Shown: in pieces, positions 8,053 through 54,807 of the stretch
How positions within the stretch are numbered: position 1 is the stretch's first letter
Layout: each line of letters starts with the position of its first letter
Source of the DNA: an uncultured Gammaproteobacteria bacterium
GTDB lineage: Bacteria; Pseudomonadota; Gammaproteobacteria; UBA9214
Assembly (NCBI GenBank): GCA_942491995.1
Contig: CALOCX010000002.1
Location: 35,758 to 99,757 of the forward strand
DNA length: 64,000 bases
Direction: 5' to 3'
Position numbers and translations under genes: made by a program
The notes under the pieces: generated by a model
The model's input: only the letters and a program-made list of their open reading frames with translations
The model's database searches: none
What the model was told of the DNA's origin: nothing

Positions 8053-9066
8053 TCATTGAATCACTTCGCCGTCACTATCAAGCAACCAGAAACGCACACT
8101 GGCATCGTCACTGGTTGTCGCCAGGTAGCGACCATCTTGAGAAACGGCGATATCGCCGCCACACAGCTCATGCCGCTGGAAGCGGCGTCGCACCTCGCCG
8201 CTCTCTGCGTTCAGAAAATACACGGAACTGTCTGTCTGGCGACTGATGGTTGCCAGCTCGTTTCCGTCATTGATGTATTCTATGGACTTGATGATGCCGC
8301 GATGCTCGGTGGCGATCGTCGTTAACCTACCGTCGTCAAGATCCCATTGATAGAGACGGAACCAGCTACCGCCGGACAACGTTTTCCCATCGGGGGAGAA
8401 TGCCAGCGTCCAGGCATCGGCGGGTGGTGTAGCAAGCTGCCGGGGCATCGCGTCTTCAGACCACAGCACCACGGTGCCGTCTGTACTGCTGGACGCATAG
8501 CGTGCGACACCGGGATCAATGGCAACGGCCTTGACCGCACCCTGGTGCAACTGCTGCTCCTTCAACAAGGTAAAGTCCGCCGCCTTCCACAGGCGCACCG
8601 TGCCGTCATCGTGACCGGTCAGCAGTCGATCGGTTTTAATATCCGCAACCATGTGCGTAACCGCGGACGGTGTCCTGACCTGCTCCAGTAATTGTCCGTC
8701 AATTGCACGCCTGGTTAACAAACCGTCATAACCGGCTGTGACGATCTCGCGATCCGATTTCAGGAAGGCAATACCGTTAACAGAGTCACTGTGTGCAAGC
8801 CAGTGACGAACCTCTCGACCCTGCGGCAGTTGCCACAAACGCACCGTGCCTTCCCAGCCTCCCGATGCCAGCAGGTCACCGGACTCACTGAACGCGACCA
8901 CGCTGCCACCACTATGGGCCTTTTCCTTCACCACGGCCGGTGATTCTTCAGGATGGAAACTGGCGCATGCCGAAAGCAGCAGCACCTGAAAAACCAGAGC
9001 AAGTAGAAGTGACACAGGCGCGCCTTCCTTGCAAGCATTGAAAACAGAATTGCTATAATCTTTCAT
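8053..9066 (-). CDS. WD40-repeat beta-propeller lipoprotein
   Basis: Signal peptide with lipobox LLLSAC, and repeated GTVRLW / DGTVRLW / DGTVVLW WD motifs. Confidence 0.7.
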   Translation of the reverse strand: MKDYSNSVFNACKEGAPVSLLLALVFQVLLLSACASFHPEESPAVVKEKAHSGGSVVAFSESGDLLASGGWEGTVRLWQLPQGREVRHWLAHSDSVNGIAFLKSDREIVTAGYDGLLTRRAIDGQLLEQVRTPSAVTHMVADIKTDRLLTGHDDGTVRLWKAADFTLLKEQQLHQGAVKAVAIDPGVARYASSSTDGTVVLWSEDAMPRQLATPPADAWTLAFSPDGKTLSGGSWFRLYQWDLDDGRLTTIATEHRGIIKSIEYINDGNELATISRQTDSSVYFLNAESGEVRRRFQRHELCGGDIAVSQDGRYLATTSDDASVRFWLLDSDGEVIQ

Positions 9067-9165: not shown

Positions 9166-10236
9166 CTAGAAGGTGTGCTTCATACCAAATGACAGCTTTC
9201 TGTCTTTGGAATCGTCCTTGTTGTCGCCAATAGCCGAACAGACATCGTTATCCTGCTGATCGCAGCGGAGCTCACTGTAGCCACCGTAGAGCATGGTACG
9301 CCGGCTCATATGGTGAGTCCCAACCAGCTGCCAGGCATTGTAGTAGGATGCCGTACTGCCACCGCTACCTTCTTCACCGCGTCCAAAGCCAAGATAGGCC
9401 ATGGAGTTACCCAGCGAGGCGGTTGCACCCAGCATCCAGGTGTTGGCGCCATCACCTGAACCATCGGTCTGGTTGTCGCCACGTGCACTGATCAGGCCAT
9501 CATCCCCCTCGTACTGCGCGAAAAAGGAGAACATACCCAGGTCGTACTTGCCACCCACCTTCCAGGCAGAATCATCGCCGCCCGCATCACTGGTAATGTA
9601 GTCTGCGAAGACAAGAAAGGAACCACCCTGCCACTGGCCGCCAATACCCCAGGGGCTGTCGGCGTTTGGATTGTCCTGGTCTTCAGTCTGCACGGTGTAG
9701 TGTGCGCCGGCACCGAGACCATTCCAGGTGGGCGTGTCGTAACGCAGTGTGTTGGTTGCTCGCCCCTGACCGTCCTCGCCTGCACCACGGTGCAAATCAG
9801 ACTGCAGGCCACGATCACGTTGCTGCAGTGCCGTGCGATAGATGGGATCCAGCATGGCGCCGTGTGACTTGTAAACGGTCGAGATGGTACCCGCACGCAG
9901 TTGGCCAAACACCCCGCCCAGTCCCAGCCACTGGTCACGATCGGTGATTGCATTTTTTCCAGAATCAGTAGCACCATTACCATTACGCTCGGTGGTGTCG
10001 TACTGGAAGTCAAGCTTGAACATCGCCTTGAGACCATTACCCAGGTCTTCGCTACCCTTGAAACCAAAAGAACAGGTCGTGCAATTCATATTGATGAAAT
10101 CGCCACCGCCCCCATCCGCATCCTCGTAATCCAGACTGGTATCGATGTGTCCAAATACCACAACGTCTGCGGAGGCCGCACTCATGCCACCCGCGAGGAC
10201 CGCAGCCATCAGGATCGGTAATTGTCTTTTCATCAT
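9166..10236 (-). CDS. outer-membrane porin (Gram-negative porin superfamily), paralog 1
   Basis: Start MMKRQLPILMAAVLAGG (a signal peptide) with GGGGAG as SD. Gly/Asp-rich beta-barrel composition. The C-terminus SFGMKHTF ends in Phe. About 60% identical to the next gene. Confidence 0.7.
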   Translation of the reverse strand: MMKRQLPILMAAVLAGGMSAASADVVVFGHIDTSLDYEDADGGGGDFINMNCTTCSFGFKGSEDLGNGLKAMFKLDFQYDTTERNGNGATDSGKNAITDRDQWLGLGGVFGQLRAGTISTVYKSHGAMLDPIYRTALQQRDRGLQSDLHRGAGEDGQGRATNTLRYDTPTWNGLGAGAHYTVQTEDQDNPNADSPWGIGGQWQGGSFLVFADYITSDAGGDDSAWKVGGKYDLGMFSFFAQYEGDDGLISARGDNQTDGSGDGANTWMLGATASLGNSMAYLGFGRGEEGSGGSTASYYNAWQLVGTHHMSRRTMLYGGYSELRCDQQDNDVCSAIGDNKDDSKDRKLSFGMKHTF

Positions 10237-10361
10237 GCTGTGCTCCCCGGAAACTTCAGAATGCGGCTTACTTGACAAGCCTTGTAATATAAAGATAAAT
10301 CTACTCAATCGTCAACAAAAATGCAACATCAATTTCCATTATGTTGTTATTGAGCAACAGA

Positions 10362-10392
10362 AAAGAAAACGGGGCCAACTGGCCCCGTTTCC
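10362..10392 (-). terminator. rho-independent terminator after porin gene 2
   Basis: On the minus strand: acggggcca-gtt-ggccccgt followed by TTTTCTTTTC. This is the same hairpin family as at 9116 and 33121. Confidence 0.6.
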
Positions 10393-10414
10393 CGGTTCTG
10401 CTCGATACTGCCGA

Positions 10415-11509
10415 TTAGAACGTGTGCTTCATACCCAGCGAGAAATCACTGACCTTGTCGAAGTCATCATAGTCCCGCTGAGCGTAACCGGCATAGACCT
10501 TGGTACGCTTGCTGAGGCTATGTACACCGACGATTTCCCAGTTTTTGGACTTGGTACCCACTGACTCTGTGCCCAACGTACCGTCATCGTAAATAAGCGT
10601 ACCACCGTCGGCATCGTCAGCCTGGCCGTATGCCGCATAGATCAGGTTGTTGCCAAAACCGGCGGTACCACCGACGAACCAGGTATCGGCACCATCACCA
10701 TTGCCAACAACATCCTGGCCGATAACTACACCATCTTTGACGGCAAAGCCCGTGCGCCGACTGATTGCACCACCGTCACCCTCGTACTGTCCGAAGAGGG
10801 CGAACTTGTCGAAGCCCCAACGGCCACCGACCTTCCAGGCGTCGTCGTCGCCACCGGCATCGCTGGTGATGTAGTCAGCAAAGACCAGGAAACCACCGGC
10901 CTGCCAATGGCCACCGATACCCCAGGGGCTGTCGGCGTTCGGATCAGCCTGGTCTTCTTTCTGTACGGTGTAGTGACCGGCTACCTGGAAACCTGCAAAG
11001 GTCGGGCTGTCATAACGGATGGTGTTGGTGGCACGACCCTGAGCCGCGGTATCGCCGGCACCGGTGTGCAGGTTGGACTGCAGACCCCAGTCACGACCCT
11101 GGAGCGCGGTACGGTAGATCGGGTCCAGCATGGCACCGTGAGACTTGTAAACAGTCGAGATGGTACCAATGCGCAGCTTACCGAAGTTGCTGTCAAGACC
11201 TAACCACTGGTCACGATCGGTGATTGCATTATTTCCAATAGGATTAGATCCATTACGCTCGGTGGTGTCGTACTGGAAGTCAATCTTGAAGATCGCCTTC
11301 AGGCCGTTACCCAGGTCTTCACTGCCCTTGAAGCCAAACGAACAAGTGGTACAGGTCAGGTTGTTGAGGGTTTTGTTGCTCTGGTTTTTGTCCTTGCCGC
11401 TGTTAAAACTGGTATCGATGTGACCCATTGCAGTCACGTCAGCAAATGCACTGGACATACCACCCACGAGGGCGGCGCCAATCATTACCGGTAAGATTTT
11501 CTTAATCAT
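10415..11509 (-). CDS. outer-membrane porin, paralog 2
   Basis: Start MIKKILPVMIGAALVGG with AAGGGGA as SD. The C-terminus is DFSLGMKHTF. It is a tandem paralog of 9166..10236. Confidence 0.7.
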   Translation of the reverse strand: MIKKILPVMIGAALVGGMSSAFADVTAMGHIDTSFNSGKDKNQSNKTLNNLTCTTCSFGFKGSEDLGNGLKAIFKIDFQYDTTERNGSNPIGNNAITDRDQWLGLDSNFGKLRIGTISTVYKSHGAMLDPIYRTALQGRDWGLQSNLHTGAGDTAAQGRATNTIRYDSPTFAGFQVAGHYTVQKEDQADPNADSPWGIGGHWQAGGFLVFADYITSDAGGDDDAWKVGGRWGFDKFALFGQYEGDGGAISRRTGFAVKDGVVIGQDVVGNGDGADTWFVGGTAGFGNNLIYAAYGQADDADGGTLIYDDGTLGTESVGTKSKNWEIVGVHSLSKRTKVYAGYAQRDYDDFDKVSDFSLGMKHTF

Positions 11510-12041
11510 GATATTCCCCTTACAGAGTTGAAGTAGAGTTAACAAAGTCACTTGTCATTGCACGCGAGTACTTTACAACAACAAACAGCAAGAACGCAAC
11601 ACTTATTTTCAAAAAAACCACAGACTGCCTTATTGTGTTGTTTTGTTGTCACACCGTGAGGCATGACTCTCTCACCAGCCACTGTTTTCCATAGCTAAAA
11701 TTGTGGAAAGTCACTGTATTTACAGGGAGTTAGAATATTCCTACGGCACAGCAGCCACTCAGCGCCTGAATTGGGTACGCCAGCAGACACTCCGAGAACT
11801 GATGGATGTACATCAATTTCCACGTGTTGCTTACCTACCACAGACCATTATATAGGTACAAAACGACTCTTCCAGAAACGCCTTGGGACAGAAACGAATG
11901 GATGAAGCTAACCATTCCGGCAACCTTTGCGAATGATGCGACCTTCCTGAAAAGCAGCTGCGGCACAACGAAGAAACACCGTTACTGGAACCCGATTAAC
12001 GAGTAGTACACACGGCGCTGAAACATTACAAACCGGCAAAC

Positions 12042-13940
12042 TCAAGGTTCAGTTGAATATCCAAAGCTTTTAGCCCAGGGCTCAAGCAGTGGAACTATTC
12101 CTTTAATCTGATCCTGGTAATTCTTCCATCGTCCGATTGCTTGTGTATATAGACTCTGTGTCACCTGATTATAACTTGGAGTGGTTATCGTCTCCCTCGA
12201 CAATGCTGTCTGCTGAAAATCCAGTAAATGATCATGCCAGGCCAAACCCAGAAAGTTCAGTAGCGGTTCCGCGGCACCTTGCAAGTCATGGACAATATCT
12301 TCATACCTCAAAACTCCAGCATCAAGATCCAGGGCATTGTTGTAATGAACCCAAAGACTCATAACGGCATCATACAAGCTGGCAGATTGCTGCAGGGTCA
12401 GGAAATTCGCCATGGCATCGTTTAATTGAAAGTTCTGCATGAAACAACTCAGCACACAGTCGTACGGATGCCGTAATGCCAGAATGAATTTGGAAGCCGG
12501 GAAAACCCGGTGGATCAAACCAGCGTCAATGATATTCAGGGGCAGTTTGTCGATGACGAGCTTATGCGAACCATCAGGTTCAACATGAGAATTAAGCTCC
12601 TCGAAATATACTTCCCTTAACCCGGCTATCTGTTTGTCATCCAGGTCCGTCAGAAGATCAACTGTCGCGAGACCTCCCATGTGAGTCCGCATAGACTCCA
12701 CCATGTGTTTTTCTTCCACCACCAATACTTCGGGGTGTGACCGTAAAATTGTATCGAGGAGCGTGGTACCCGAGCGGGGGAACCCTACAAGAAATGCCAG
12801 TGAATATTGCCTGGTTGACGACTGTTTTGTGGACCATCTTATCTTCCCGGCATTCGCCCAGGATTCCGAGGTTTTTGATACTCGATCAAAGTAACGCTGC
12901 GCACTGAATTGCTGGCCAGCAGAAAATTGCCTGGCCATATTATTGGTTATCTCGAACTGAGAAAATGCGCTGGAAAACTCGCCAAGCCTGTCATATGTCT
13001 TTGAGAGAAGTTCCGAGTAACGCTGCCTTGTACGCGGCAAGAGTCTTTCGGGAGCTACCAGTTCAAGGAAATCACGAGCAGCTTCAAACTGCTTTTCCCT
13101 ACTGGCAAGCAGCGCCTTGAGAAACAGAAGTTCTGGATGGTTTTTTGGAAGTACCTGCTGTGCGCGATGCAAGGCCTTTTTCAGCTCGGTAACCCTGTTG
13201 TGCTTTTCGTAGAAATCACAAAGGCTGGTATGCGCGATTCCAAGATCAGGCTTGAGCTCGATCGCCTTCTCATAGCTCTCCACCGCCTCCTGCAACTTTC
13301 CAAGATCACAGAGTGCATTGCCGCGGTTGCTGTAAGCCTCGGCATAATCAGGCTTGAGCTCGATCGCCTTCTCATAGCTTTCCAGCGCACCCTCCAGTTG
13401 CCATAGCTCTCTAAGCACATTGCCACGGTTGCTGTAAGCCTCGGCATAATCAGGCTTGAGCTCGATCGCCTTCTCATGGCTCTCCACCGCCTCCTGCAGC
13501 CGCCCAAGGTCACAAAGTGCATTGCCACGGTTGCTGTAAGCCTCGGCATAACCAGGCTTGAACTGGATTGCCTTCTCACAGCTCTTCACCGCATCTTCCA
13601 GCCTCCCTAACTTGTGAAGTGCATTGCCACGGTTGCTGTAAGCATCCGCATAATCAGGTTTGAGCTGGATTGCCTTCTCATAGCTTTCCAGCGCCTGCTG
13701 CAGCTGCCCAAGGTCACAGAGTGCATTGCCACGGTTGCTGTAAGCATCCGCATAATCAGGCTTGAGCTCGATCGCCTTGTTGAATGCCTTGCACTGCCTC
13801 ATGAAACTTGCCTTGCTCCTGGCATGCCACTCCCAGGACATTGAGAATGAATACTGCTTGTGGATAGACCTGGAGTAATTCTCTACAAGCCTGCTCTGTC
13901 TTCGCCACCTGCCCGGAGTGATATAGATTGACCAGGGCAT
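12042..13940 (-). CDS. TPR-repeat protein with a C-terminal sulfotransferase domain (this is the downstream reading frame of a frameshifted gene)
   Basis: At least six 34-aa TPR units (AIELKPDYAEAYSNRGNAL...) are followed by GFPRSGTTLL, the PAPS 5'-PSB motif of sulfotransferases. Confidence 0.7.
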   Translation of the reverse strand: MPWSIYITPGRWRRQSRLVENYSRSIHKQYSFSMSWEWHARSKASFMRQCKAFNKAIELKPDYADAYSNRGNALCDLGQLQQALESYEKAIQLKPDYADAYSNRGNALHKLGRLEDAVKSCEKAIQFKPGYAEAYSNRGNALCDLGRLQEAVESHEKAIELKPDYAEAYSNRGNVLRELWQLEGALESYEKAIELKPDYAEAYSNRGNALCDLGKLQEAVESYEKAIELKPDLGIAHTSLCDFYEKHNRVTELKKALHRAQQVLPKNHPELLFLKALLASREKQFEAARDFLELVAPERLLPRTRQRYSELLSKTYDRLGEFSSAFSQFEITNNMARQFSAGQQFSAQRYFDRVSKTSESWANAGKIRWSTKQSSTRQYSLAFLVGFPRSGTTLLDTILRSHPEVLVVEEKHMVESMRTHMGGLATVDLLTDLDDKQIAGLREVYFEELNSHVEPDGSHKLVIDKLPLNIIDAGLIHRVFPASKFILALRHPYDCVLSCFMQNFQLNDAMANFLTLQQSASLYDAVMSLWVHYNNALDLDAGVLRYEDIVHDLQGAAEPLLNFLGLAWHDHLLDFQQTALSRETITTPSYNQVTQSLYTQAIGRWKNYQDQIKGIVPLLEPWAKSFGYSTEP

Positions 13941-14172: not shown

Positions 14173-14323
14173 TCGCCATACTTGATATCTAGTTGATGAT
14201 TTTCAACACCCTTAAGATGAATCACGCTATGCACTCGTTCTACCGGTCGTCGCCATTGCACAACGACGTTCTAACTCGCTGCGCTCACACGTCGAACCCG
14301 AGGTTCTCATCCGAGTCCGCCTA

Positions 14324-14352
14324 AACAAAACCCGCCATGCGGCGGGTTTGGT
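14324..14352 (-). terminator. rho-independent terminator after the rplM-rpsI-tRNA-Gln unit
   Basis: On the minus strand: cccgcc-gcat-ggcggg followed by TTTTGTTT. Confidence 0.7.
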
Positions 14353-14355
14353 TTA

Positions 14356-14429
14356 TGGCTGGCGGACTAGGATTCGAACCTAGATTAGTGGAGTCAGAGT
14401 CCACTGTCCTGCCGTTAGACGATCCGCCA
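14356..14429 (-). tRNA. tRNA-Gln (anticodon CUG)
   Basis: Cloverleaf with a U1:A72 pair (the Gln identity element), T-loop GGTTCGAATCC, anticodon loop CU-CUG-AC, discriminator G and an encoded CCA. Begins 8 nt after the rpsI stop. Confidence 0.85.
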
Positions 14430-14437
14430 AAAGCGGC

Positions 14438-14827
14438 TTAACGTTTGGAGAACTGCGGAGCGCGACGCGCCTTGTGCAGACCGACCTTCTTGCGTTCCAC
14501 CTTACGGGCGTCACGTGTCACAAAGCCTGCTCGCCTCAGGACCGGGCGCAGTTCGTTATCGTATTCAATGAGTGCGCGGGTGATACCATGACGAATAGCA
14601 CCCGCCTGGCCACTCATGCCGCCACCCTTGACGGTAACCGTAATGTCAAAATCACCCAGCATATTGGATGTGTCCAGCGGCTGGCGCACAATCATGCGGG
14701 CGGTTTCACGACCGAAGTAGGTATCAAGAGGACGCTTGTTAACAATGATGTCGCCTTTACCCTTGCGCAGAAAAACCCGTGCAGTTGAAGTTTTACGGCG
14801 TCCGGTACTGTAGTAGGTGTCACTCAT
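14438..14827 (-). CDS. rpsI: 30S ribosomal protein S9
   Basis: 129 aa. The ...[18 protein letters not shown]-terminus is diagnostic. Confidence 0.95.
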
Positions 14828-14900
14828 GCTTTATTCCTGTTGCTGACTTGATTTCGCGTCAGTCAATTCGTTTAACTGGGTTCTGATAATCGGGTGCTGA

Positions 14901-15328
14901 TTAAAAATTCAGTGGCTTTGGCTGCTGGGCAGCATGCTGATGGTCTGGCCCGGCGTAAACCTTCAGCTTGCGAAACATCGCGCGACCCAGCGGGTTCTTC
15001 GGCAGCATACCCTTGACAGCCAGTTCGATAACCCTGCCCGGTGCCTTTTCCTGCATCTTTTCAAAGTTAGCGGACTTCAGGCTACCGATGTAGCCGGTAT
15101 GGTGATAGTACATCTTGTCCGTTGCCTTGCGGCCGGTAACATGCACCTTGTCGGCATTCACCACAACGATGTAATCACCGGTATCGACATGGGGTGTATA
15201 TATAGGCTTGTGTTTTCCGCGCAGGCGGCGTGCGATCTCAGTGGCCAGTCGGCCCAATGTTTTACCTGCAGCATCAACGACATACCAGTCGCGATTCACT
15301 TCGTGTGCTTTTGCGGAAAATGTTTTCA
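14901..15328 (-). CDS. rplM: 50S ribosomal protein L13
   Basis: [20 protein letters not shown] matches the L13 N-terminus. The track start at 15359 is a TTG upstream and is rejected. Confidence 0.9.
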
Positions 15329-18417: not shown

Positions 18418-18524
18418 TAGTACACCCAACCCTCGAAAAACGTGAATCCTATCACAGTTCAAAGCACCTGGTTGCGGTCTGCCAGCAGCCCTAAAGCTAT
18501 TGCCTGACTGCCCGATAAAGGGTC

Positions 18525-19190
18525 ATGCAAGCACTTCCACTGACATTCGAAGCAAATAACACGCCACTACCGGGTACCGTCAACCCCTGTATTACGCGAT
18601 TCCTTGAACACTGCCACCGCCGCAAATATCCGAACAAGAGCGTCATTATTTACGCAGGCGATCAGCCGGACGTTCTCTACTACATCATCAGTGGCTCGGT
18701 CAGTGTGCTGATCGAGGATGAGGACGGCCACGAGATCGTACTCGCCTACATCAATGCCGGCGGTTTTTTCGGTGAAATGGGACTGTTCGGGGAGAGTCCC
18801 AATCGCAGCGCATGGATACGTACCCGGATTGAATGCGAGGTCGCCGAAATCAGCTATTCGCGTTTCCGTTCACTCGCCAAGGAAGATCCGGATATCCTGC
18901 TGGAACTGACCGCCCAACTGGCCACACGTCTGCGCAAGACCAGTCGCAAGGTCAGTAACCTTGCCTTTCTCGACGTCACCGGGCGCATCGCGCACACCCT
19001 GCTGGAATTATGCAAGGAACCGGATGCGATGACCCACCCGGACGGCATGCAGATCAGGATTACCCGCCAGGAAATTGGGCGTATTGTGGGTTGCTCGCGC
19101 GAAATGGCGGGGCGGGTGCTGAAATCACTCGGTGAACAGGGACATATCTCGGTTAAGGGTAAAACGATTGTTGTATTCGGGACGCGTTAA
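18525..19190 (+). CDS. vfr: cAMP receptor protein CRP/Vfr
   Basis: Near-collinear with CRP/Vfr: the cNMP pocket FFGEMGLF...RSAWIRTR, then the [25 protein letters not shown] and the end [11 protein letters not shown]. Confidence 0.9.
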
Positions 19191-24639: not shown

Positions 24640-25100
24640 GTTGTTGTCCTCACTCGGAATTTCAAAGGGGTATGCGTAAAAATTTGAAGGCGCACTTTAA
24701 CCCAACAGGGCGGAATTTTCAGCATATAGGGGCCAGAAAATGGCTAAATAAATGCCCGGCCACTCCTGGCATTCATCTCAGCCTGCCGCTGTGACACGCG
24801 CTGGCTGCATTCCTGCTTTCTTTTTAAATGCAAACAGTTATGGGGCATTCTAACAAGCAGCCTGAGAACAAAACGTCACACCCGTAGCATCGTATTTGAA
24901 AAAGGTGATAACCGACAGCAAGGGCCAGACTACCGGGCCAAGCTGTCCAGCAGTCAAACTCGAAAATTAGCCAATACTGAACTGCTTGCCAAGCATGGAT
25001 GCAAGTTTTATAAATGGCGCTATAGCAATCAATTATCACAACATCACTATCCGGCTTGCATCAAACGAGTTGGCAACCTGACCATAAGGGAGAAATTGAA

Positions 25101-25388
25101 ATGGCAAAAACATATCAACCCCGCCTCGGTGACTGGTACCGTTCGATCAATGGAGACAAATTTGAAATTGTTGCACTCGACGAAGATGTTGACACCATGG
25201 AGATCCAGCATTTTGATGGCGCCATCGAGGAAATCGATTTTGACAGCTGGAATGAAATGGAGGTCATCCCGATTGAGCCGCCGGAGGACTGGTCAGGGTC
25301 ACTGGATATTGAGCGGGAGGATTATGGTGTTGACCTTGAATTGACGTCCCCGAACGATCATATCAATCCACTGGACGAGGTTGACTAA
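25101..25388 (+). CDS. small acidic hypothetical protein (it has a paralog at 37398..37628)
   Basis: AAGGGAGA as SD before MAKTYQ. It shares the GxWY...I...DS-W motif with the 76-aa ORF at 37398. Confidence 0.5.
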   Translation: MAKTYQPRLGDWYRSINGDKFEIVALDEDVDTMEIQHFDGAIEEIDFDSWNEMEVIPIEPPEDWSGSLDIEREDYGVDLELTSPNDHINPLDEVD

Positions 25389-27256: not shown

Positions 27257-27622
27257 TCAGCAGCTGTCCTTGGGGAAATCACGAGGCAGCACCACGACCT
27301 CACCGGCATCGACAGCCACCGGTACTGACGTTAGCCGGTCCCCCGCACAGGGGCCTGCGACACAGTAACCATCAGTTATACGGAACAAAGCCGCATGCGT
27401 TGCACACTGGATGTAGTCCTTGTCGAGACTCAGGAACTGGTCTGGCATCCAGTCCAGGGGGGCACCCGTATGTGGGCAGCTGTTCAGGTAAGCGAAAACC
27501 TGCTGTCCGAGGCGCACAATAAATACGTCGCGCAACTGTCCATTCACACCCATCACCAGCCCGCGGCTATCGGGGTCATTTAACGCATCAAGCTGACAGA
27601 CAACCGTCCGGCCGGGCATATT
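27257..27622 (-). CDS. Rieske [2Fe-2S] domain protein
   Basis: CPHTGAPL ... CATHAALF are the Rieske CxH...CxxH ligands. Confidence 0.7.
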   Translation of the reverse strand, partial: NMPGRTVVCQLDALNDPDSRGLVMGVNGQLRDVFIVRLGQQVFAYLNSCPHTGAPLDWMPDQFLSLDKDYIQCATHAALFRITDGYCVAGPCAGDRLTSVPVAVDAGEVVVLPRDFPKDSC

Positions 27623-27771: not shown

Positions 27772-30700
27772 TCAGTGCTCGCGGACAACACGAAATCCGA
27801 GGTTGTCGAGACGTGTATCCTGGTCATATTGGCTGCGCTTGGCATTGCGCAGTGAGTCTAGCGGACTGGTGTAGGCGCCGCCCCGTACGACCCGCATGGC
27901 GCATTCGGGAAACTGCCATGAGCTGCCATCTACCGGTGCACCATGGTAGCTGCCATGATAACAGTCAGACGTCCATTCCTGGACATTGCCGGTTACATCA
28001 TGCAGGCCGAAATCATTGGCTTCAAAGCTGCCCACAGGTGCCGTGCGCAGACTGTCCCACTCACTGCCACAGTCAAAGCAATTTGCATGAAGATTGTTAC
28101 TGTCATCATGCCACCAGAAACTGGCGACACTGCCGGCACGGGTGAAATACTCCCACTCGGCTTCTGATGGCAAACGGTATATCTGCCCTGTCTGCTCTGT
28201 AAGCCAGCGGGCATAGGCACGCGCATCATCCCAGGAAACATTGATCACCGGGCGCCCGCCACGGCCCCAGGACTCGTCATAAGGCAGCCGACGACCTGTC
28301 GCTCGCGCAAACCTGTCATATTCTTCGAATGTAACTTCATATTTACCGACAGAAAAGGCAGCCACATTCACCCGATGCCGCGGCCCCTCGTCAAAATTCA
28401 GAGAATTTCCAACACTACCCATTTCATAGCTGCCAGCCGGCAGCTCAACCATCACCGGACCCTGGCCACCAAGCTGGAGCTTTTCACGGTAGGAACGGCC
28501 GGCGACTACAGGCGCCAGGGACATCACGTCAACAGCCTCATCAGCCTGTGGTTGTAACTGTTCCTTATCAGGTACTGACGTCTGTACCGTGACATGTTCC
28601 ACAGCCGGCGGAGATTCCTGAACAGTTGCCGCAACTTGCTCGATTTCCATTTCCACAGACGCGGCGGCCGGTTGTACTTCAGTTGCAGGTGATTCACTGA
28701 TAACAATCGCTTCGGGTTCAGCCACCGGCTGCGTAACAACGGGTAATTGTCGCCCTGCGTCGTTGTCAAACAGCGGGACATCCACACCGAAAAACAGCCA
28801 GCCAGCCAGCGCACACGCAGTCACTGTACACAACCCGATTGCAGCACCAAGCCAGCGCCACTGCTTGTTTTCACGCCTGTCATCTACCGCGGAACGCTTC
28901 TGGCTGTCCTGCTCCCGGTCCACCGGGGTTACTGGCAATACTGCCTGCCGTGCTTTCGGTCCAGGCCCCGGGTGCCCGGATACTGCTTCAAGCTTGTCAA
29001 GGGACGGTACATGTAGCGGCTCGCTCGACACCTCCCCGGAATCCAGTTGCTGCCGGAGCGCGTCACGTTCCTGCTGCAGCTTGTCGCGAGCGGCTTCCGC
29101 CTCGGCTCTCAAGCGCAACGCAATCTCAACGTTCTTCTTGCTTTCATTCAGCTCATTGCGTAATTTTGCGGGGTCTTCGACCTGTTCGCCAACCCCCATA
29201 AGACCACGTGCGACCTCTACCTCACCACGCAAGGCATTCATCCTGTCGCGCAGTGACTGCTGCTCCTCAAGCGCTGCATCCCGTTCTTCTGTGTACTGCT
29301 TGAGCTGTGATTCGAGCTGTGAAATAGTTGCTACCGCCTGCCGGTTTTGTTCTTCCATCAAGTCGACATCGACCTTCCTGCGGTCTTTTTCCTGACGGGC
29401 GAGCACGGCAATTTCTTCGTGTGCCTTTTTCAGTTCCTGCTGAAGCCTGTCAATCTGGTCTTCAGTTTCTACATGCTCTGCAAGCAGTTCCCGGACGCGT
29501 TCCTGCTCCTCCTGTCTTGCTGCATTGCGGGCCTGCTCAATAGCACCATTATGATTGGACAGATTTGTTTCATGCTCTGTCGCGATTGAAGCAAGCTGCT
29601 CCTTCAACTCGCGCTGGCGTGCGGCCATCTCAGACCGCTCTTCCGCACGTGCCTGCCGTTCAGCATGCAGTTGTTCCCGCAAATTATCGACATCTTCACG
29701 CGCACCTTCGCGGTCCTTCTGATGGTCCGTCGTCTGTTGCTCGACTTTTTTTCGCAGCCTGTCTATTTGCCCCTGCAGCTCTTTTTCATTGTCGTTTTTG
29801 CGTGTCAGGTCCTCATGCGCTTTCTGCACAGACAACTTGTTCTCTTCCTCGAGCGCCTTCGCCCGTTCTTCCTGCTGTTCGAGCTGCAGACGCAGGTCGC
29901 TCAGCTGCTGTTGTAATATGTCACGTTCCTGCTGAAATGCTTCAGACTCACTCCCGTGCAGTGCCAGCTGTTCCTGCAGAGAACTCAGATGCGCATCCTT
30001 TTCCTCATTTGACTGTTCAACAGCACTTGTCTTTTCCCTGGCCTCCTGCAACTGCGACTGTAACTGCTGGAGTTGCTCATTCGAAGCAGATGCCAGTGAC
30101 TCCGCCTCCTGTTTCAGTGACTCTATCCCGCTTTGCAGTTGCTGTTTCTGCGCCTCACTATCAGCGTGTTGTTGCTGTAGCTGTTCACGCTCCGCCATCA
30201 CGGCCTGCAACTCATCATCCTGTCTGGACCGATCCTGCTTGAGTTCAAGCTGCTTGATCTCAAGTTGCTCAATCCTTTCATTTGATTTGTCGAGCTGTGC
30301 TTTAAGTTCTGCCTCAAGTGCAGACTTGTCTTCGCTGGATTGCAGCAACGCCAGTGACAACTCCTCGCGGAGCGTGGTCACAACCTGCTGCTCGCCATCC
30401 AGCACCTGCTGCAACGCAGCCCGCTCGGCCTCCCATTCCGACTGCTGCCGCTGGGCGGCCTCTTCCGAGGCCTGCCTGTCTGCCAGCAGGTTTTCCAGCT
30501 GCTCCCTTTGCTCTTCCTGTTGCACACCGGCATCACGCAATTCGGTGCGTAATATCTCGTTATCCCGCTGCAGCGCCTGCAGCTGGCCCGAGAGTGCAGA
30601 GTTGTCTGCCTCCAGTCCGGACACCTGCCCCGATTTCTCATTGAGTTGCGCCGAAACCTCGGCAAACTCATGCTTGAGATGGTCAAGTTCCTCTCTTAAA

Positions 30701-32100
30701 GTGTCGGATAAAGTCGTTTGCTGCTGCAAACGCTCGTCAAATTCCTTTTCTGCGAGCTGCTCCTGCAACCGTCCAAGTTGCTGTTCATAGTCACTGGCGC
30801 GCCCGGAGAATTCTTCCTGGAGTGCCTGATACCGTTCCTGCAGCAGTGCTTCAGCTGCAGCTGCCTGCTGGTTCACCATAACGTCTACCGCAGATTCTGA
30901 TCCAACGGGGGCATCCTGAGCGTCGCCCGCAGGGCTGCCGTCAGCATCTGATTGCCCGGCAAACCCGGAACTCCCACCGTCAAAATCGACAACCTCTGCA
31001 AGTACCTCGATGGAATCTGCCGCATCTTCCCCGTCCACAGGCTCGTTGGCACTGCCTGACAGGCCGGGGATGCCTCCCTCCAGCACATACACATCAAAGC
31101 CCTTGTGACTTAACAGGAAAGCGGCTGATTCGCTGCGCCGTCCGGTGTCACAACAAATGATGTATTTCGAGTTGAAAACCAGTTCTGACAGTTCATCCCG
31201 CAAGCGGAATAAAGGAATGTTGACACTGTCTTCGAAGGCACCGTTCTCATATTCATCCGCCGTCCTGACATCCACCCAGACGGCACCATCATCCACCATG
31301 GCTGCGGCCTGTTCGTAATCCACCCGCTTGACCAACTGATTTTTCAGTAACTCCACAAAGTCCTTCTTCGCCAGCCGCATCAATAAGCCGTCAGTCAACA
31401 TTGATACTGTGGCATTACGCCTGGTGTTGGACACCAGGGCATCCTCACCAAAGGAATCGCCTTCGCCCAGTTCAGCCAGCAATTGTGGCTCATCACCGGG
31501 GGATTCCTGCCTGGTTACCACACAACGGCCTTCATGAAGGGTGTAGAAATAATCGCCGTTATCCCCCTGGCGTATAACCGTGTCACCTGCCTTAACCGGT
31601 AGCGATTCCATCTTGATCAACAGGCTCTGGATCATCGAGGGCGGTATCTTTATAAACACTTCAGACTGAAGGACGCGCGTCATCCAGTCTTTATTCGTTT
31701 CTGCACCGATTTCTACCACTTCCGCCGTACTGGATTGATCCCATGTCAGAAAGACATCGAGCAGGCTGGAGTCGATCTTCGCGATCACGACCTTTTTAAC
31801 GGCTCTCGCTGACAGTGATCGGGGTTGCTGGTTGGCAATCGGATAGCGGCTTATATCCGTACCAGCCTCGACTTCACTGGTCACCTTCCTGAAACCGTCA
31901 ATCAGGTTAACCTTGCCTTCCAGCAGATAGATTGACTGGTTATCCCTGTCTCCCTTGCGGAACAGGTAGTGCCCTGCCAGCACTTCCTCGATGATGATTT
32001 TCTCCGACACTTCCCTGAAGCGTTCCGCAGATAGCGCATTCAGCGGCACCAACTCTTGCAGAAGCTTGCTATCCACCGTTAATTTCTTCGCTGCGCGCAT
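27772..32100 (-). CDS. giant multidomain membrane signalling protein: 2x cNMP-binding, rhodanese, ~600-aa coiled coil, one TM helix, and a C-terminal FGE-sulfatase (SUMF1-like) domain
   Basis: N-terminal CAP-type effector domains (GEGDSFGEDALV...RRNATV). Rhodanese loop YIICCDTGRRS. A Q/E/L/R-rich heptad region from about aa 440 to 1040. TM helix WRWLGAAIGLCTVTACALAGWLFFGV. C-terminal LPSEAEWEYFTRAG...RVVRGGAYTS is the FGE/SUMF1 hallmark. AGGTGA SD before the ATG at 32100. Confidence 0.85.
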   Translation of the reverse strand: MRAAKKLTVDSKLLQELVPLNALSAERFREVSEKIIIEEVLAGHYLFRKGDRDNQSIYLLEGKVNLIDGFRKVTSEVEAGTDISRYPIANQQPRSLSARAVKKVVIAKIDSSLLDVFLTWDQSSTAEVVEIGAETNKDWMTRVLQSEVFIKIPPSMIQSLLIKMESLPVKAGDTVIRQGDNGDYFYTLHEGRCVVTRQESPGDEPQLLAELGEGDSFGEDALVSNTRRNATVSMLTDGLLMRLAKKDFVELLKNQLVKRVDYEQAAAMVDDGAVWVDVRTADEYENGAFEDSVNIPLFRLRDELSELVFNSKYIICCDTGRRSESAAFLLSHKGFDVYVLEGGIPGLSGSANEPVDGEDAADSIEVLAEVVDFDGGSSGFAGQSDADGSPAGDAQDAPVGSESAVDVMVNQQAAAAEALLQERYQALQEEFSGRASDYEQQLGRLQEQLAEKEFDERLQQQTTLSDTLREELDHLKHEFAEVSAQLNEKSGQVSGLEADNSALSGQLQALQRDNEILRTELRDAGVQQEEQREQLENLLADRQASEEAAQRQQSEWEAERAALQQVLDGEQQVVTTLREELSLALLQSSEDKSALEAELKAQLDKSNERIEQLEIKQLELKQDRSRQDDELQAVMAEREQLQQQHADSEAQKQQLQSGIESLKQEAESLASASNEQLQQLQSQLQEAREKTSAVEQSNEEKDAHLSSLQEQLALHGSESEAFQQERDILQQQLSDLRLQLEQQEERAKALEEENKLSVQKAHEDLTRKNDNEKELQGQIDRLRKKVEQQTTDHQKDREGAREDVDNLREQLHAERQARAEERSEMAARQRELKEQLASIATEHETNLSNHNGAIEQARNAARQEEQERVRELLAEHVETEDQIDRLQQELKKAHEEIAVLARQEKDRRKVDVDLMEEQNRQAVATISQLESQLKQYTEERDAALEEQQSLRDRMNALRGEVEVARGLMGVGEQVEDPAKLRNELNESKKNVEIALRLRAEAEAARDKLQQERDALRQQLDSGEVSSEPLHVPSLDKLEAVSGHPGPGPKARQAVLPVTPVDREQDSQKRSAVDDRRENKQWRWLGAAIGLCTVTACALAGWLFFGVDVPLFDNDAGRQLPVVTQPVAEPEAIVISESPATEVQPAAASVEMEIEQVAATVQESPPAVEHVTVQTSVPDKEQLQPQADEAVDVMSLAPVVAGRSYREKLQLGGQGPVMVELPAGSYEMGSVGNSLNFDEGPRHRVNVAAFSVGKYEVTFEEYDRFARATGRRLPYDESWGRGGRPVINVSWDDARAYARWLTEQTGQIYRLPSEAEWEYFTRAGSVASFWWHDDSNNLHANCFDCGSEWDSLRTAPVGSFEANDFGLHDVTGNVQEWTSDCYHGSYHGAPVDGSSWQFPECAMRVVRGGAYTSPLDSLRNAKRSQYDQDTRLDNLGFRVVREH

Positions 32101-32745
32101 ATTCACCTGGTTCAGAATTCAGTGATCGTCGTTATTTACCCCGTTCACGGGGCCCCGCCACGGCACTACACCGCACCTTGTTTATCGGCAAAAACAGCTT
32201 GAAATTAAGGAGATGAACTGTGCGGCAAGAGACGCGTAACAGGATGCAGGACACGACAGGATCAACGCCTCGCAGCACATTGGCGGTGATCAGTCTGCAA
32301 CCGCTAGCAGGCTATCGGCCACCAAGGTGAATTGCTGCACAGCGTTATACATCGCGCAAAATTAACTATATTTATGTTTAATATCAGTTGGTTGGACTAT
32401 ATCTCGGATATCAATGTCTAGTAAAAAGCAGGACCCGGTTAACATGTGGCAACGCTGTAGAAGTATCTGGCCACCTGCCACCAGGACTGCCGGCAACATC
32501 ACTGGCGGTCATCGTGACACGCTATAACCATTCACCCTGCATACTCTGACAACAATGTGGTTGCCGGGTCGTCAACAGACACATGACAGAACACACCGAA
32601 TAAACATCCATGCCGCCGTCTGCCGTATGGCGCTGAAGTACTGCTATAGAAGGTGTTTTATTAAATTAAAACCCTTTAACATTTCTATTATTGTGCTATC
32701 TTACGCGTGCTATTAATTTCACCACCTGAAGAGGAGCGACAACGA

Positions 32746-33105
32746 ATGGCTGTAAAAAAGAAAGCGACCACCAAAAAGAAGACCGCCGCAAAGGCAGCAA
32801 TGAAACCTACCACCAAGTCTGAAACACTCAACTACATCGCCGAAGCAACCGAACTGACCAGAAAAGACGTGGGTGCCGTTTTTGATGCGCTCTCGGCCCT
32901 TATCAAGCGCGACCTCAAGGGCAGAGGGAGGCCTGGTGTTTATACGGTTCCCGGCCTGATGAAGATCAAGGTCGTTCGTAAACCGGCTACCAGGGCACGC
33001 AAGGGTACAAACCCGTTCACTGGTGAAGAAATGATGTTCAAGGCAAAGCCGGCGCGCAATGTCGTAAAGGTACTGCCATTGAAAGGCCTGAAGGAAATGG
33101 TCTGA
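32746..33105 (+). CDS. HU/IHF-family DNA-binding protein with a lysine-rich N-terminal tail
   Basis: MAVKKKATTKKKTAAKAAMKPTTK tail, then the HU fold (SETLNYIAEATELTRKDV...VPGLMKIKVVRKPATRARKGTNPFTGEEMMFKAKPA). Confidence 0.75.
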   Translation: MAVKKKATTKKKTAAKAAMKPTTKSETLNYIAEATELTRKDVGAVFDALSALIKRDLKGRGRPGVYTVPGLMKIKVVRKPATRARKGTNPFTGEEMMFKAKPARNVVKVLPLKGLKEMV

Positions 33106-33187: not shown

Positions 33188-33640
33188 CTAGCCACCACTC
33201 TCCTGCAGTCTGGTTCTGATGAACTGCTTGTGCGGCACATACAGGAGATCCGCCACCTTCCTGACAAGATGCTCTTCATGTTTGTCAACATGGCCATCAG
33301 CAAATGTCACTTCCCATAACAGCCTGATTAATTCTATTCTTTCCTCAAGACTGCATTCAGTGGTTATCAGGCGGGTCAACGGATACAGCGACGTCATGTT
33401 ATCCGCATGACTCTCGGCAGCTTCCGAAATTTCAAGGGCCCGCCTCGCTGACACAGCAAAATAGCGTTCAATGATGCGCAGTATGACCTGCTCCTCTTTG
33501 TCACTGGTGTCGTAATCGGCACGCGCGACCTCCATTAACAATGCGACCGTCGCCATCCGCAGTGCCTCATCACGGTCGAGCGACTCTTCCTGCGCTGTGC
33601 AGATAGCCTTCTTCAACAGTCCCTGGATGGTGCCAAACAT
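33188..33640 (-). CDS. TerB-family (tellurite-resistance/DjlA N-domain-like) protein
   Basis: 150 aa. The helical TerB fold pattern LLMEVARADYDTSDKEE...LIRLLWEVTFADGHVDKHEEHLVRKVADLL. Confidence 0.65.
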   Translation of the reverse strand: MFGTIQGLLKKAICTAQEESLDRDEALRMATVALLMEVARADYDTSDKEEQVILRIIERYFAVSARRALEISEAAESHADNMTSLYPLTRLITTECSLEERIELIRLLWEVTFADGHVDKHEEHLVRKVADLLYVPHKQFIRTRLQESGG

Positions 33641-53058: not shown

Positions 53059-54807
53059 TCACGACCCGGCCCCGTCCGGCGGGGTGTTGGCAATCAGGTA
53101 CATGGGCCGGTCCGGCGGCATGCCTTCCGCGAAGAAAAAAGGCACCTCAGCGGGGTTATTGAACAAGCGCTCGAAGTATTTCGGTTCGATCAGGATGTAG
53201 GACAGCGTGTCCGTCTCCTGCATTATTCGCATCAGTTCGGCCTCGTTCACCTCCGGCACCCGTCGGTCCAGGTAGAAGCCGTATTCTTCGTCCCAGGAAC
53301 GATACATATAGACAGGCCGCTCCCCGACCAGGCTGGCGATGGCAGCGATATAGGGACGGGTATCCTCCCTGACACTGTTGATGGACTGCATCATGAACAG
53401 CATAAAGGCCAGCAAGATCCCCTGGAACACGATGTACAGGCGGATCAGCGGCGGCCGCTCGCGGAGGGTCCAGCCGTACCCCCACAGTCCGCCCAGCAGC
53501 AAGATGCCCCCAAGGATGTAATGCCGCCATTGTCCCAGGGTAGCCAGATAGGGTCTGGCCTCCTCCAGCCGTTCCGGACCCAGCGAGTCCTTCAGCCAGG
53601 TCCCGGGCCACTCTGAAGAGAGAATCTGCGGGATGAGTGCAAGCAGCAGTAGCAGGACCAGCGCCGTTCCGCTGGTCACCAGGAACACCCGGCGCAACGA
53701 TCGGGGGCGGATCGTCAGGCTAAGGTAGCCGGCCACGAGCCAGGCAGCGGCCGGATAGAGCGGCAGGATGTAATCGCTGCGCTTGATCCCGGAGAGCGAG
53801 AAGAACAGCAGTATCCAGAGAATATAGACCACCAGCAGACCCTCGACCCCGGCGCGTCTGGACCGGTCGCGCAGCACCTGGTAGATGATCACCGGTATGA
53901 ACAGTGCCCAGGGGAAGAAGCCCCACAGAAAGTGCATCGGATATTGCCAGCCGGGCTGCCGCTGGAAGGTCGTGAACTCAAGCGCGCTGAACAGATTGCC
54001 AAAGCGCGACAGGTTTTCCTCAAGGATGAACCAGCGGAAAAAGTGACCCTCGGTGATGACGGACGCGTAAACGAACCAGGGCAGTGCAAGCGCCAGAAAC
54101 AGCAGCATGCCCCTGCCGAGGAACACCCTGGACAGTTCCCGGAAGGCACCCTGCAGCAGCAGGAACAGAAACACCGGGACGCCGGTAACAATGAAGCCCA
54201 CCGGTCCCTTGGTCATCACCGCCAGGGCGGCCGCAATGAAAAACAGGTAATAGCCGTGATTCCGTCCCCCGACCTCCCGCTCGGGCGACACCCAGTAGCC
54301 GGCGAATGACACGATCGCGGCAAAGGCGAGCAGGCACAGCATCAGGTCCATGCGCGCCATTTGCGCCATCCCGATCACCTTGGGACTGGTGACCAGAATG
54401 GCGGCGGCCAGCAACAGCGGGGTCCGTTGACCACGCTCCTGTGGCAGCAGCCGGAACATCAGCATGAGCAATACCACGCTAACCAGTGAGGGCAATCGGG
54501 CGGCCAGTTCCCAATGCGCCCCGGTCACGGATCTGGCCAGTCCAATGGTCCAGAAATAGAGAGGCGGTTTGTCGTAGTCCTCCGCCCCGTTCATGTGGTT
54601 GACGCCCCAGTCACCAAGCAACAGGAACTGCCGGGCGATCTCCGCGGACTCCGCCTCCAGGGTGCCGTTCAGTGCCCGGACTGAAGCCTGCCAGACGACC
54701 ACCCCGAGCAACAGCAGGATGATCGCCAGGGGAATGATGGCCGGAAGTCCTGAACGGTCGTCAGACGAGGCGCTTGCATCGCCTGAAAAGTGCGGCTGGC
54801 TTGTCAT
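53059..54807 (-). CDS. family 39 glycosyltransferase (ArnT/PMT-like)
   Basis: 582 aa, polytopic. YDKPPLYFW is the GT39/ArnT signature loop. Confidence 0.8.
   Translation of the reverse strand: MTSQPHFSGDASASSDDRSGLPAIIPLAIILLLLGVVVWQASVRALNGTLEAESAEIARQFLLLGDWGVNHMNGAEDYDKPPLYFWTIGLARSVTGAHWELAARLPSLVSVVLLMLMFRLLPQERGQRTPLLLAAAILVTSPKVIGMAQMARMDLMLCLLAFAAIVSFAGYWVSPEREVGGRNHGYYLFFIAAALAVMTKGPVGFIVTGVPVFLFLLLQGAFRELSRVFLGRGMLLFLALALPWFVYASVITEGHFFRWFILEENLSRFGNLFSALEFTTFQRQPGWQYPMHFLWGFFPWALFIPVIIYQVLRDRSRRAGVEGLLVVYILWILLFFSLSGIKRSDYILPLYPAAAWLVAGYLSLTIRPRSLRRVFLVTSGTALVLLLLLALIPQILSSEWPGTWLKDSLGPERLEEARPYLATLGQWRHYILGGILLLGGLWGYGWTLRERPPLIRLYIVFQGILLAFMLFMMQSINSVREDTRPYIAAIASLVGERPVYMYRSWDEEYGFYLDRRVPEVNEAELMRIMQETDTLSYILIEPKYFERLFNNPAEVPFFFAEGMPPDRPMYLIANTPPDGAGS

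Follow-up and report, generated by a model that had tools for sequence, protein, structure and literature searches.

A conserved cyclic-nucleotide-binding and rhodanese head on a giant gammaproteobacterial stalk protein: a putative membrane-tethered, cyclic-nucleotide-regulated rhodanese or scaffold

The locus described here raises the question of what a single protein could do that joins two cyclic-nucleotide-binding (CNB) domains and a rhodanese, through a very long coiled coil and one transmembrane (TM) helix, to a C-terminal domain of the formylglycine-generating enzyme (FGE) fold. Its gene lies in a 64,000-nucleotide stretch of contig CALOCX010000002.1 (assembly GCA_942491995.1, positions 35,758 to 99,757) from an uncultured Gammaproteobacteria bacterium of the lineage UBA9214. 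We refer to this whole stretch as the window and to the gene product as the stalk protein. To our knowledge, few bacterial effectors of cAMP or cGMP are known outside the CRP-type transcription factors. A review states that in most bacteria cAMP acts globally only through CRP (PMC11139211). We read the stalk protein, with a probability of about one half, as a membrane-tethered rhodanese or scaffold regulated by a cyclic nucleotide (cNMP), in which the N-terminal head is the core, the stalk a tether and the C-terminus an anchor. We classified it with the non-CRP bacterial cNMP receptors and the co-opted FGE-fold proteins. The individual domains are ordinary; what is notable is a large, conserved family in which a tandem sensor resembling the regulatory subunit of protein kinase A (PKA-R) is wired directly to a rhodanese. 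Should cNMP prove to gate that rhodanese, cyclic-nucleotide signalling would for the first time be tied directly to the trafficking of persulfide or sulfur.

The gene consists of a single open reading frame (ORF; Table 1). Translation from an ATG gives 1442 residues and from a GTG two codons upstream 1444; the ATG is favoured because homologues begin with MRAAKK. The initial annotation had described five parts in this frame, and all are present in the order given according to Pfam, hydropathy and periodicity. The Pfam families that it predicted were each recovered far above the gathering cut-off: cNMP_binding (PF00027) in two stretches (E 1.3e-28, 99.3 bits against a cut-off of 27.5), Rhodanese (PF00581) at residues 263-346 (52.6 bits against 22.2) and FGE-sulfatase (PF03781) at residues 1215-1440 (E 1.2e-57, 196 bits against 23.3). 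The motifs YIICCDTGRRS and EAEWEYFTRAG...RVVRGGAY were both found in the translation, and the region of residues ~410-1020 is low in Pro and Gly and high in Gln, Glu, Leu, Arg and Ala. The conservation profile consists of three conserved blocks with variable spacers between them. Pfam detected no HTH_Crp domain, the C-terminal helix-turn-helix (HTH) DNA-binding domain of CRP/FNR factors, in the stalk protein, which is not a member of that family. The PADLOC models gave no family at E ≤ 1e-3 for the stalk protein, its Rieske neighbour or its TerB neighbour, and a defence-system reading was rejected.

Table 1. Features of the stalk protein and of neighbouring genes in the window. Column identity is from the family alignment, with the residues it covers in brackets where they differ from the feature.
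Feature	Positions	Strand	Residues	Column identity	Details
Whole stalk-protein ORF	27772..32100	minus	1442		plus stop codon; no interruption
Head			1-350	~0.6-0.8
CNB-A	31732..32073	minus	~10-123		non-canonical cNMP-binding fold; AlphaFold2 (AF2) domain pLDDT 75-88
CNB-B	31336..31686	minus	~139-255		canonical cassette F217-G218-E219...R228-N229-A230-T231; best Pfam stretch 169-254
Single-domain rhodanese	31063..31329	minus	~258-346		Pfam E 7e-14
Rhodanese active-site loop	31132..31155	minus	316-323		C316-C317-D-T-G-R-R-S323; C317 fits C-x-x-G-x-R-[ST]
Acidic variable linker	30874..31053	minus	~350-409	0.17 (361-400)	Gly/Asp-rich; net charge -13 per 50 residues; gaps 32%
Distal coiled-coil stalk	29821..30873	minus	~410-760	0.26-0.44 (401-760)	variable sequence and length; weak SMC matches (NCBIfam)
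Membrane-proximal conserved helical block	29011..29820	minus	~761-1030	0.55-0.76	heptad-periodic; E/R-rich stretches
TM helix with both flanking linkers			1041-1200	0.16-0.34
Single TM helix	28783..28854	minus	~1083-1106		from hydropathy; predicted N-in/C-out
Periplasmic variable linker	28486..28782	minus	~1107-1205	~0.17	Pro/Glu/Gln/Ala-rich
PvdO-like FGE-fold domain	27775..28485	minus	~1206-1442	0.61-0.82 (1201-1440)	predicted periplasmic
Family-specific CxxC	28069..28080	minus	1341-1344		C1341-F-D-C1344 within A-N-C-F-D-C-G-S
Small Rieske [2Fe-2S] protein	27257..27622	minus			downstream; Pfam Rieske; likely Met start ~27622, mechanical TTG start 27724
HU-like DNA-binding protein	32707..33105	plus			divergent; Pfam Bac_DNA_binding; most conserved neighbour, 63/80 loci and L081
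DUF6763 protein	25056-25388	plus	110		between Rieske/ABC genes and rpe in 47/80 related loci
Crp/Vfr gene	18525-19190				carries HTH DNA-binding domain
DsrC-like gene	58083-58418				26 kb from the stalk gene
TPR + sulfotransferase fusion	12042-13940	minus	632		14 kb from the stalk gene
Bacterial WD40 beta-propeller protein	8053-9066	minus	337
1013-residue ORF	54967-58008	minus	1013		sole Pfam match a weak methyltransferase domain, residues 133-202

The family was delimited by its head. An exhaustive HMMER search with the head alone returned 1,344 clusters (50% identity) at E ≤ 1e-30, and a scan of species-representative genomes, one per species, with a head-specific alignment gave 420 loci, the listed records being mostly labelled Gammaproteobacteria. 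The best 150 of the 1,344 clusters, to which all counts out of 150 below refer, span the whole tri-domain head at lengths of 340-1870 residues. The remainder of the protein varies: 72 representatives carry stalk, TM helix and FGE-fold domain, 41 a stalk only, 11 a stalk and a TM helix near the C-terminus without the FGE-fold domain, and one a stalk and FGE-fold domain with no TM helix scored; 11 are heads only (≤380 residues), and 14 exceed 380 residues without a scored stalk. The FGE-bearing representatives number 73 or 74 depending on the comparison. The conserved functional unit of the family is the N-terminal head.

An artefact, either a chimeric ORF produced by misassembly or a frameshift joining separate genes, was considered, as several metagenome-assembled genomes (MAGs) contain split copies in which a truncated ORF is followed downstream by FGE-coding sequence (L019, L023, L026, L035, L059 and L067). 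These copies are exceptions, five of the six carrying the MFD isolate prefix, and probably reflect assembly frameshifts rather than real gene fission. The full architecture, one ORF that holds the three Pfam domains together, recurs in more than 100 independent full-length metagenome and MAG proteins from different assemblies and sources (40-97% identity, listed among 322 matches), and nearly half of the diverse representatives, the 72 mentioned above, likewise hold stalk, TM helix and FGE-fold domain in one protein. An artefactual fusion is effectively refuted, and the initial annotation was right to treat the ORF as one gene rather than two or three.

The initial annotation also knew of no characterised protein with this combination. 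For characterised proteins this stands: the literature searched contained none that combines cNMP-binding, rhodanese and FGE domains, and no characterised family member was found. As to novelty of the architecture itself it does not, since the architecture is abundant in databases under automatic and generic names such as 'SUMF1/EgtB/PvdO family nonheme iron enzyme', a name that is misleading for this family. The family occurs mostly in uncultured Gammaproteobacteria. The named carriers belong to Ectothiorhodospiraceae, Sedimenticola, Thiogranum and Thiohalobacter/Thiohalobacterales, including the cultured Thiohalobacter thiocyanaticus Hrh1, and all of these named taxa oxidise sulfur. The gene is also found on contigs that bear the label 'Halobacteria archaeon' or 'Bathyarchaeota' (L026, L032, L035, L036 and L066); two of them, L026 and L035, show gammaproteobacterial gene order (HU, TerB, Rieske, rpe) as well. 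Mistakes in binning or labelling very likely account for these archaeal names.

Within the head, the two CNB domains differ in their cassettes. CNB-B follows the pattern G-E...R-[STA]-A of the phosphate-binding cassette, with F, G and E each present in 149 of the 150 representatives, R228 in 146 and N229 in 128. CNB-A does not follow it: the F-G-E motif is missing and the phosphate-binding-cassette loop is four residues longer. P93 (149/150) and R94 (147/150) are nevertheless retained and Gly80 is invariant, so that CNB-A is non-canonical yet still under constraint. A sequence search of the PDB with residues 1-255 matched cGMP-dependent protein kinase (PKG) and PKA-R at E 1e-26 to 1e-17. AF2 was run on the head with an alignment of 106 sequences, which gave a mean predicted local distance difference test score (pLDDT) of 71.6, with domains at ~80, and a predicted TM score (pTM) of 0.37; a model from 12 sequences was unusable (mean pLDDT 47). 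In Foldseek, the best matches of the model from 106 sequences were again the tandem CNB domains of PKG and PKA-R (E 8e-20 to ~1e-19). The stalk protein resembles PKA-R and PKG in having two consecutive CNB domains, the second with a canonical F-G-E...R-x-A cassette. It differs in lacking a kinase, an inhibitor sequence and a docking domain, in the absence of F-G-E from CNB-A, and in its output, which is a rhodanese. CNB-B is presumably the cAMP or cGMP site, as predicted from its cassette.

The rhodanese follows CNB-B directly. It combines the PF00581 fold with a six-residue loop of the form C-x-x-G-x-R-[ST], and its D277-V278-R279 motif is near-invariant. NCBIfam returned weak matches to the rhodanese modules of GlpE, PspE, ThiI-C and MoeB, all far under their cut-offs (GlpE, for example, 32 bits against 102). 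The same fold and loop length are found in GlpE, PspE and the rhodanese modules of ThiI, MoeB and CoA-disulfide/persulfide reductases. In the stalk protein, the putatively active rhodanese is joined to a cNMP sensor on one side and to a stalk on the other. The catalytic-type Cys pointed out in the initial annotation, C317, is intact and conserved. Close homologues all have it, and so do 131 of the 150 diverse representatives.

The stalk lies between the head and the membrane. On the single sequence, heptad periodicity was patchy and marginal in most windows of residues. When hydrophobicity was averaged over 108 aligned homologues, the best period was exactly 3.5 residues, with z = 18.2 for residues 410-760, 7.7 for residues 761-1030 and ~0 for the head and the FGE-fold domain. 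A coiled coil of ~620 residues therefore holds statistically, and the '600-aa coiled coil' of the initial annotation consists of two parts, a variable distal stalk and a conserved membrane-proximal block. This block had no match in Pfam or the PDB and was recognisable in 20 of the 73 FGE-bearing representatives, that is, in the closer clade only. Its 270 residues are conserved like globular domains, and few hydrophobic positions occur in its E/R-rich stretches. It may be an unrecognised interaction module. A self-BLAST of the stalk revealed no internal repeats. Across FGE-bearing members the distance from rhodanese to TM helix ranges from 365 to 1122 residues (median 897), and stalk length shows no mod-7 phase preference.

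Exactly one TM helix was found in 117 of 120 homologues, 340-390 residues before the C-terminus. Among 194 TM-bearing family sequences, the 15 residues flanking the helix contain on average 3.20 Lys plus Arg on the N-terminal side and 0.85 on the C-terminal side, and the N-terminal side is the richer in 87%. These positive-inside statistics, together with the N-terminal cNMP-binding domains and the conserved Cys residues of the C-terminal domain, argue for an N-in/C-out topology. The stalk protein is thus predicted to be a bitopic inner-membrane protein with head and stalk in the cytoplasm and the FGE-fold domain in the periplasm, as the initial annotation had proposed.

Domain order and topology permit a transmembrane signalling device in which coiled coil and TM helix couple the cNMP/rhodanese part allosterically, inside-out or outside-in, to the FGE-like domain. 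The initial annotation had suggested such a coupling. Conservation within the clade is good both in the membrane-proximal 270 residues and in the periplasmic domain, and the invariant periplasmic CxxC could be a sensing or redox site. However, the stalk varies three-fold in length without conservation of heptad phase, the TM helix and both juxtamembrane linkers are the least conserved parts of the protein, the linkers being flexible and Pro/Gly-rich, and orthologues at the same locus do without the FGE-fold domain altogether. The signalling helices known to us span tens of residues, compared with 600-1100 here. We therefore consider allosteric coupling through the stalk distinctly unlikely and favour a tether over a wire.

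The FGE-less long forms bear directly on this choice. They include the protein of T. thiocyanaticus Hrh1 (L058, 10001-14053), L051 and the pair L039/L040. The latter two retain a TM helix followed by a low-complexity tail, and the FGE-fold domain is gone; L058 and L051 have neither TM helix nor FGE-fold domain and end in short basic, hydrophobic tails (GGLVAGLFGGRRRREES; RRGLFGRLLGRGEDE). Some TM-less forms finish in ...GIGRLFRKK, ...GLFGRLLGRG or ...GLVAGLFGGRRRR, tails that seem to resemble amphipathic membrane-targeting sequences of the MinD type. The heads of FGE-less forms are 66-76% identical to those of their nearest FGE-bearing relatives and their genes occupy the same locus, indicating that the TM/FGE part was lost secondarily, in at least two lineages. 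Three MAGs labelled Thiohalobacter sp. (L062, L071 and L072) retain the FGE-fold domain.

The C-terminal domain had been taken for an FGE-type, Cys-oxidising domain, which the alignments do not bear out. Its closest solved relative is PvdO (5hha; E 6.9e-42), with ToxD next and FGE only then, at ~1e-21. PvdO (dihydropyoverdine dehydrogenase) matures pyoverdine in the periplasm, and one of its Glu residues is reported to be essential for forming that compound. The stalk-protein domain shares with FGE (SUMF1) the PF03781 fold and the structural motifs RLPxExEWE, GNxxEW, RGG and GFR, but in the phmmer alignment the Cu-binding Cys336 and Cys341 of human FGE fall on a Ser and a gap (GGAYTSPLD---SLRNAKRSQ). 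FGE requires two Cu(I)-binding active-site Cys residues (bioRxiv 10.1101/2021.05.21.445229), and the stalk-protein domain thus cannot generate formylglycine. Three further identities were rejected on NCBIfam and Pfam scores: the PvdO equivalog (NF051459, 167.7 bits against a cut-off of 500), EgtB/OvoA (64 bits against 360 and 48 against 400, the DinB domain not being found by Pfam) and PorK/GldK (TIGR03525, 78 bits against 350, with no genes of the type IX secretion system (T9SS) among the window ORFs scanned). By sequence, then, the domain is FGE-fold and PvdO-like and is not an orthologue of FGE, PvdO, EgtB or PorK.

The likeness to PvdO extends over the whole domain: neither has the FGE Cys pair, both are periplasmic (here by prediction), and C1380 and C1400, at least 95% conserved in the family, are common to both. 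PvdO differs in being soluble and secreted, whereas the stalk protein is membrane-anchored, and no pvd genes (pvdMNO, pvdP) were found among the window ORFs scanned; HU, TerB, Rieske, an ABC-2 transporter and rpe-gph-trp surround the stalk gene instead. PvdO also lacks the CxxC formed by C1341 and C1344, which is at least 95% conserved in 74 diverged FGE-bearing representatives; it has T..A at these positions, and the motif is missing from aligned ToxD and human FGE. PorK, a solved FGE-fold relative that we take to be a structural ring protein, matched at E 4.6e-16. Both Tsi3, a type VI secretion system (T6SS) immunity protein, and PorK/GldK of the T9SS ring reuse the FGE fold as a periplasmic binder or scaffold without FGE chemistry; the stalk protein belongs to neither family, and no T6SS or T9SS genes lie near its gene.

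The periplasmic domain might itself be the business end, a PvdO-like or CxxC-dependent oxidoreductase, with the cytoplasmic part regulating only its abundance, oligomerisation or positioning. The strong conservation of the domain and of its four Cys residues, including the family-specific CxxC, speaks for this, as does the database label of a nonheme iron enzyme, and genetics shows that an oxidation step depends on PvdO (PMC6206403). Purified PvdO, on the other hand, was inactive and had no detectable cofactor (PMC6206403). The stalk protein moreover has neither the FGE Cys pair nor the N-terminal DinB_2-type domain with which EgtB/OvoA enzymes complete the active site of their FGE-fold domain, scores far below the PvdO cut-off with no pyoverdine cluster nearby, and the domain is lost in syntenic orthologues that always keep the head. 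A periplasmic enzyme is accordingly improbable. The missing Cys pair, the lack of in vitro activity of PvdO and the use of the fold as a non-enzymatic binder in Tsi3 (bioRxiv 10.1101/2021.05.21.445229) argue against FGE chemistry here, and the domain would most likely be a periplasmic binding or anchoring module, or else a CxxC-based redox or metal module. If so, the FGE/PvdO fold, here with a CxxC, would have been put to a new use: it would serve a giant stalk protein as its foot in the periplasm.

In the membrane-tethered reading that we favour, the stalk would presumably form a dimeric coiled coil with the head at its far end; fully extended, its ~620 residues would measure roughly 90 nm. 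The stalk would act as a spacer or tether and, via the membrane-proximal block, as an interaction platform rather than as an allosteric wire, and the anchor would here be the TM helix plus the periplasmic PvdO-like domain. Nucleotide bound to CNB-B would move its C-terminal lid helix (residues 245-255), which runs directly into the rhodanese in the predicted domain order, and this movement, a step that we purely infer, would gate the access of partners to Cys317 or to the rhodanese surface. The level of the second messenger could in this way control membrane-localised sulfur transfer or the recruitment of partners, the Rieske [2Fe-2S] protein encoded downstream, often with a PfkB kinase, being a candidate partner. 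The sequences themselves show the anatomy, the topology statistics, the residue conservation, the distribution and the synteny; we likewise infer the identity of the ligand, the rhodanese activity, the dimerisation and any Rieske role. The hypothesis is testable: the 350-residue head is compact and soluble, and T. thiocyanaticus Hrh1 is a cultured carrier of an FGE-less orthologue.

Several observations weigh against this reading. The cassette of CNB-B reads R-N-A, an unusual variant, where those of PKA and PKG read R-A-A or R-T-A, and some CNB domains bind nucleosides, judging from PDB titles among the Foldseek matches. The inter-domain arrangement in the AF2 head model is unreliable at its pTM of 0.37. 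C317 is replaced by Ser or Gly in ~13% of the diverse head-family members while the CNB-B cassette remains perfect; in these the rhodanese cannot transfer sulfur, and a role in binding or regulation is favoured. Strong purifying selection acts on the FGE-like domain and its CxxC (60-82% column identity), and the domain clearly does something specific in its clade that a tether does not explain. Finally, the Rieske/HU synteny described below could be mere vertical inheritance of a stable housekeeping region.

The loss of Cys317 beside an intact CNB-B also speaks for a structural landmark or hub protein. In such a protein, the periplasmic domain would hold the molecule in the envelope, partners would be recruited by stalk and head, cNMP would control localisation or partner binding, and the rhodanese would be a non-catalytic interaction domain. 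FimV, HubP and TipN follow such a design: an envelope anchor and a single TM helix, then a long cytoplasmic spacer of variable sequence that ends in an interaction module. The long variable coiled coil and the interchangeable type of membrane anchor fit it, although these proteins serve as an analogy only: sequence similarity was not found, the stalk protein has no LysM domain, and its polarity is the reverse of that of FimV/HubP. CbpA (PA4704) of P. aeruginosa, a non-CRP cAMP-binding protein, is reported (Endoh and Engel 2009) to have a degenerate N-terminal and a canonical C-terminal CAP domain, to be PKA-R-like with no DNA-binding domain, and to localise to the pole in a cAMP-dependent manner. 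Its reported pairing of a degenerate with a canonical CAP domain resembles the design of the stalk protein, and its reported localisation would fit a hub; CbpA is not known to carry a rhodanese, a coiled coil, a TM helix or an FGE domain. A review counts CbpA as the second effector of cAMP in that species (PMC11139211).

Short head paralogues point in the same direction. These proteins of 390-470 residues, head-only or short-stalk, form a separate clade (L046, L050, L053, L064, L066, L068, L075 and L078). Their gene cluster comprises SPFH/Band-7, NfeD, the head paralogue, a small lipoprotein-like ORF, a DjlA-like gene (TerB plus DnaJ) and an APH-family kinase, and in seven of ten loci the stand-alone paralogue directly follows the SPFH/Band-7 and NfeD membrane-scaffold pair. 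Against a purely recruiting role stands the retention of Cys317 and the full C-x-x-G-x-R-S loop in 70 of the 73 FGE-bearing forms, and their invariance in the close clade, which argues for catalysis in the FGE-bearing lineage. We consider a hub with a non-catalytic rhodanese unlikely. A TerB-domain gene also lies near the main locus (33188-33640), which may be coincidence.

Far more speculative, and in our estimate very improbable, is an extension in which the family is a new class of second-messenger effector in bacteria: cNMP gates a persulfide-carrying rhodanese that a ruler-like stalk keeps at a fixed distance from the inner membrane, and in the FGE-bearing clade a relay of thiol, sulfur or metal ends at the periplasmic CxxC. 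In sulfur-oxidising Gammaproteobacteria, such a relay would connect the sulfur pool of the periplasm with the cytoplasmic trafficking of sulfur (Rhd, TusA, DsrE, DsrC) and with the co-encoded Rieske protein.

All long forms, including the FGE-less ones, share one genomic slot: a divergent HU-like gene, the stalk gene, an optional PfkB kinase gene and a small Rieske gene, followed further on by an optional ABC-2 transporter, DUF6763 and rpe-gph-trpE. The Rieske gene gave a tblastn match in 49 of 80 loci and lies at most ~1.2 kb downstream of the stalk gene in 42 of 50 evaluable ones. In the window, the Rieske gene comes immediately after the stalk gene, no minus-strand terminator was predicted between the two genes, and a promoter/terminator scan gave weak consensus matches only. 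At locus L081, whose head is ~43% identical, the stalk gene is followed after an 8-bp gap by PfkB, which overlaps the Rieske gene by 4 bp, and the divergent HU gene is present. A PfkB-family kinase, which by eye resembles ketohexokinase, lies between stalk and Rieske genes in about half of the related loci (L015, 15394-16275; L058, ~14250-15149; L081, 10230-11087) and is missing from the window. As an operon-like neighbour, the Rieske protein is the best candidate for a functional partner. The HU-like protein has a Lys/Ala/Thr-rich, histone-H1-like N-terminal extension (MAVKKKATTKKKTAAKAAMKPTTK...), and a 600-bp intergenic region separates its gene from the stalk gene.

The initial annotation had drawn on other genes of the window, Vfr, the DsrC-like protein and the TPR-sulfotransferase, in support of a link between cyclic nucleotides and sulfur. 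We found no such support. The vfr gene adjoins trpCDG-trpE-gph-rpe, and the vfr-trp arrangement is the same in P. aeruginosa; its presence reflects a conserved housekeeping gene order and is no evidence for a link to the stalk gene. The other two genes are distant (Table 1). Upstream of the stalk gene, a single CRP-type candidate was seen, GGTGAATTGCTGCACA (32326-32341), which departs from the consensus at 2 positions. Since the whole window contains 16 such matches compared with a mean of 32 in shuffles, this site, too, is no evidence. The best CRP/Vfr-like palindrome of the window is CGTGAATCCTATCACA (18441-18456, 1 mismatch), in the 62-bp gap between an OsmC-like gene and vfr, and would fit autoregulation of vfr.

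The rest of the window is housekeeping, with ccoNOP-ccoG-fixH-ccoI, a class II ribonucleotide reductase, gspAB and ribosomal proteins. Two tandem porin genes (9166-11551) lie between the WD40 and TPR-sulfotransferase genes. The 1013-residue ORF adjoins a gene for a PMT-family glycosyltransferase (53059-54807), and the DsrC-like gene comes just after it.

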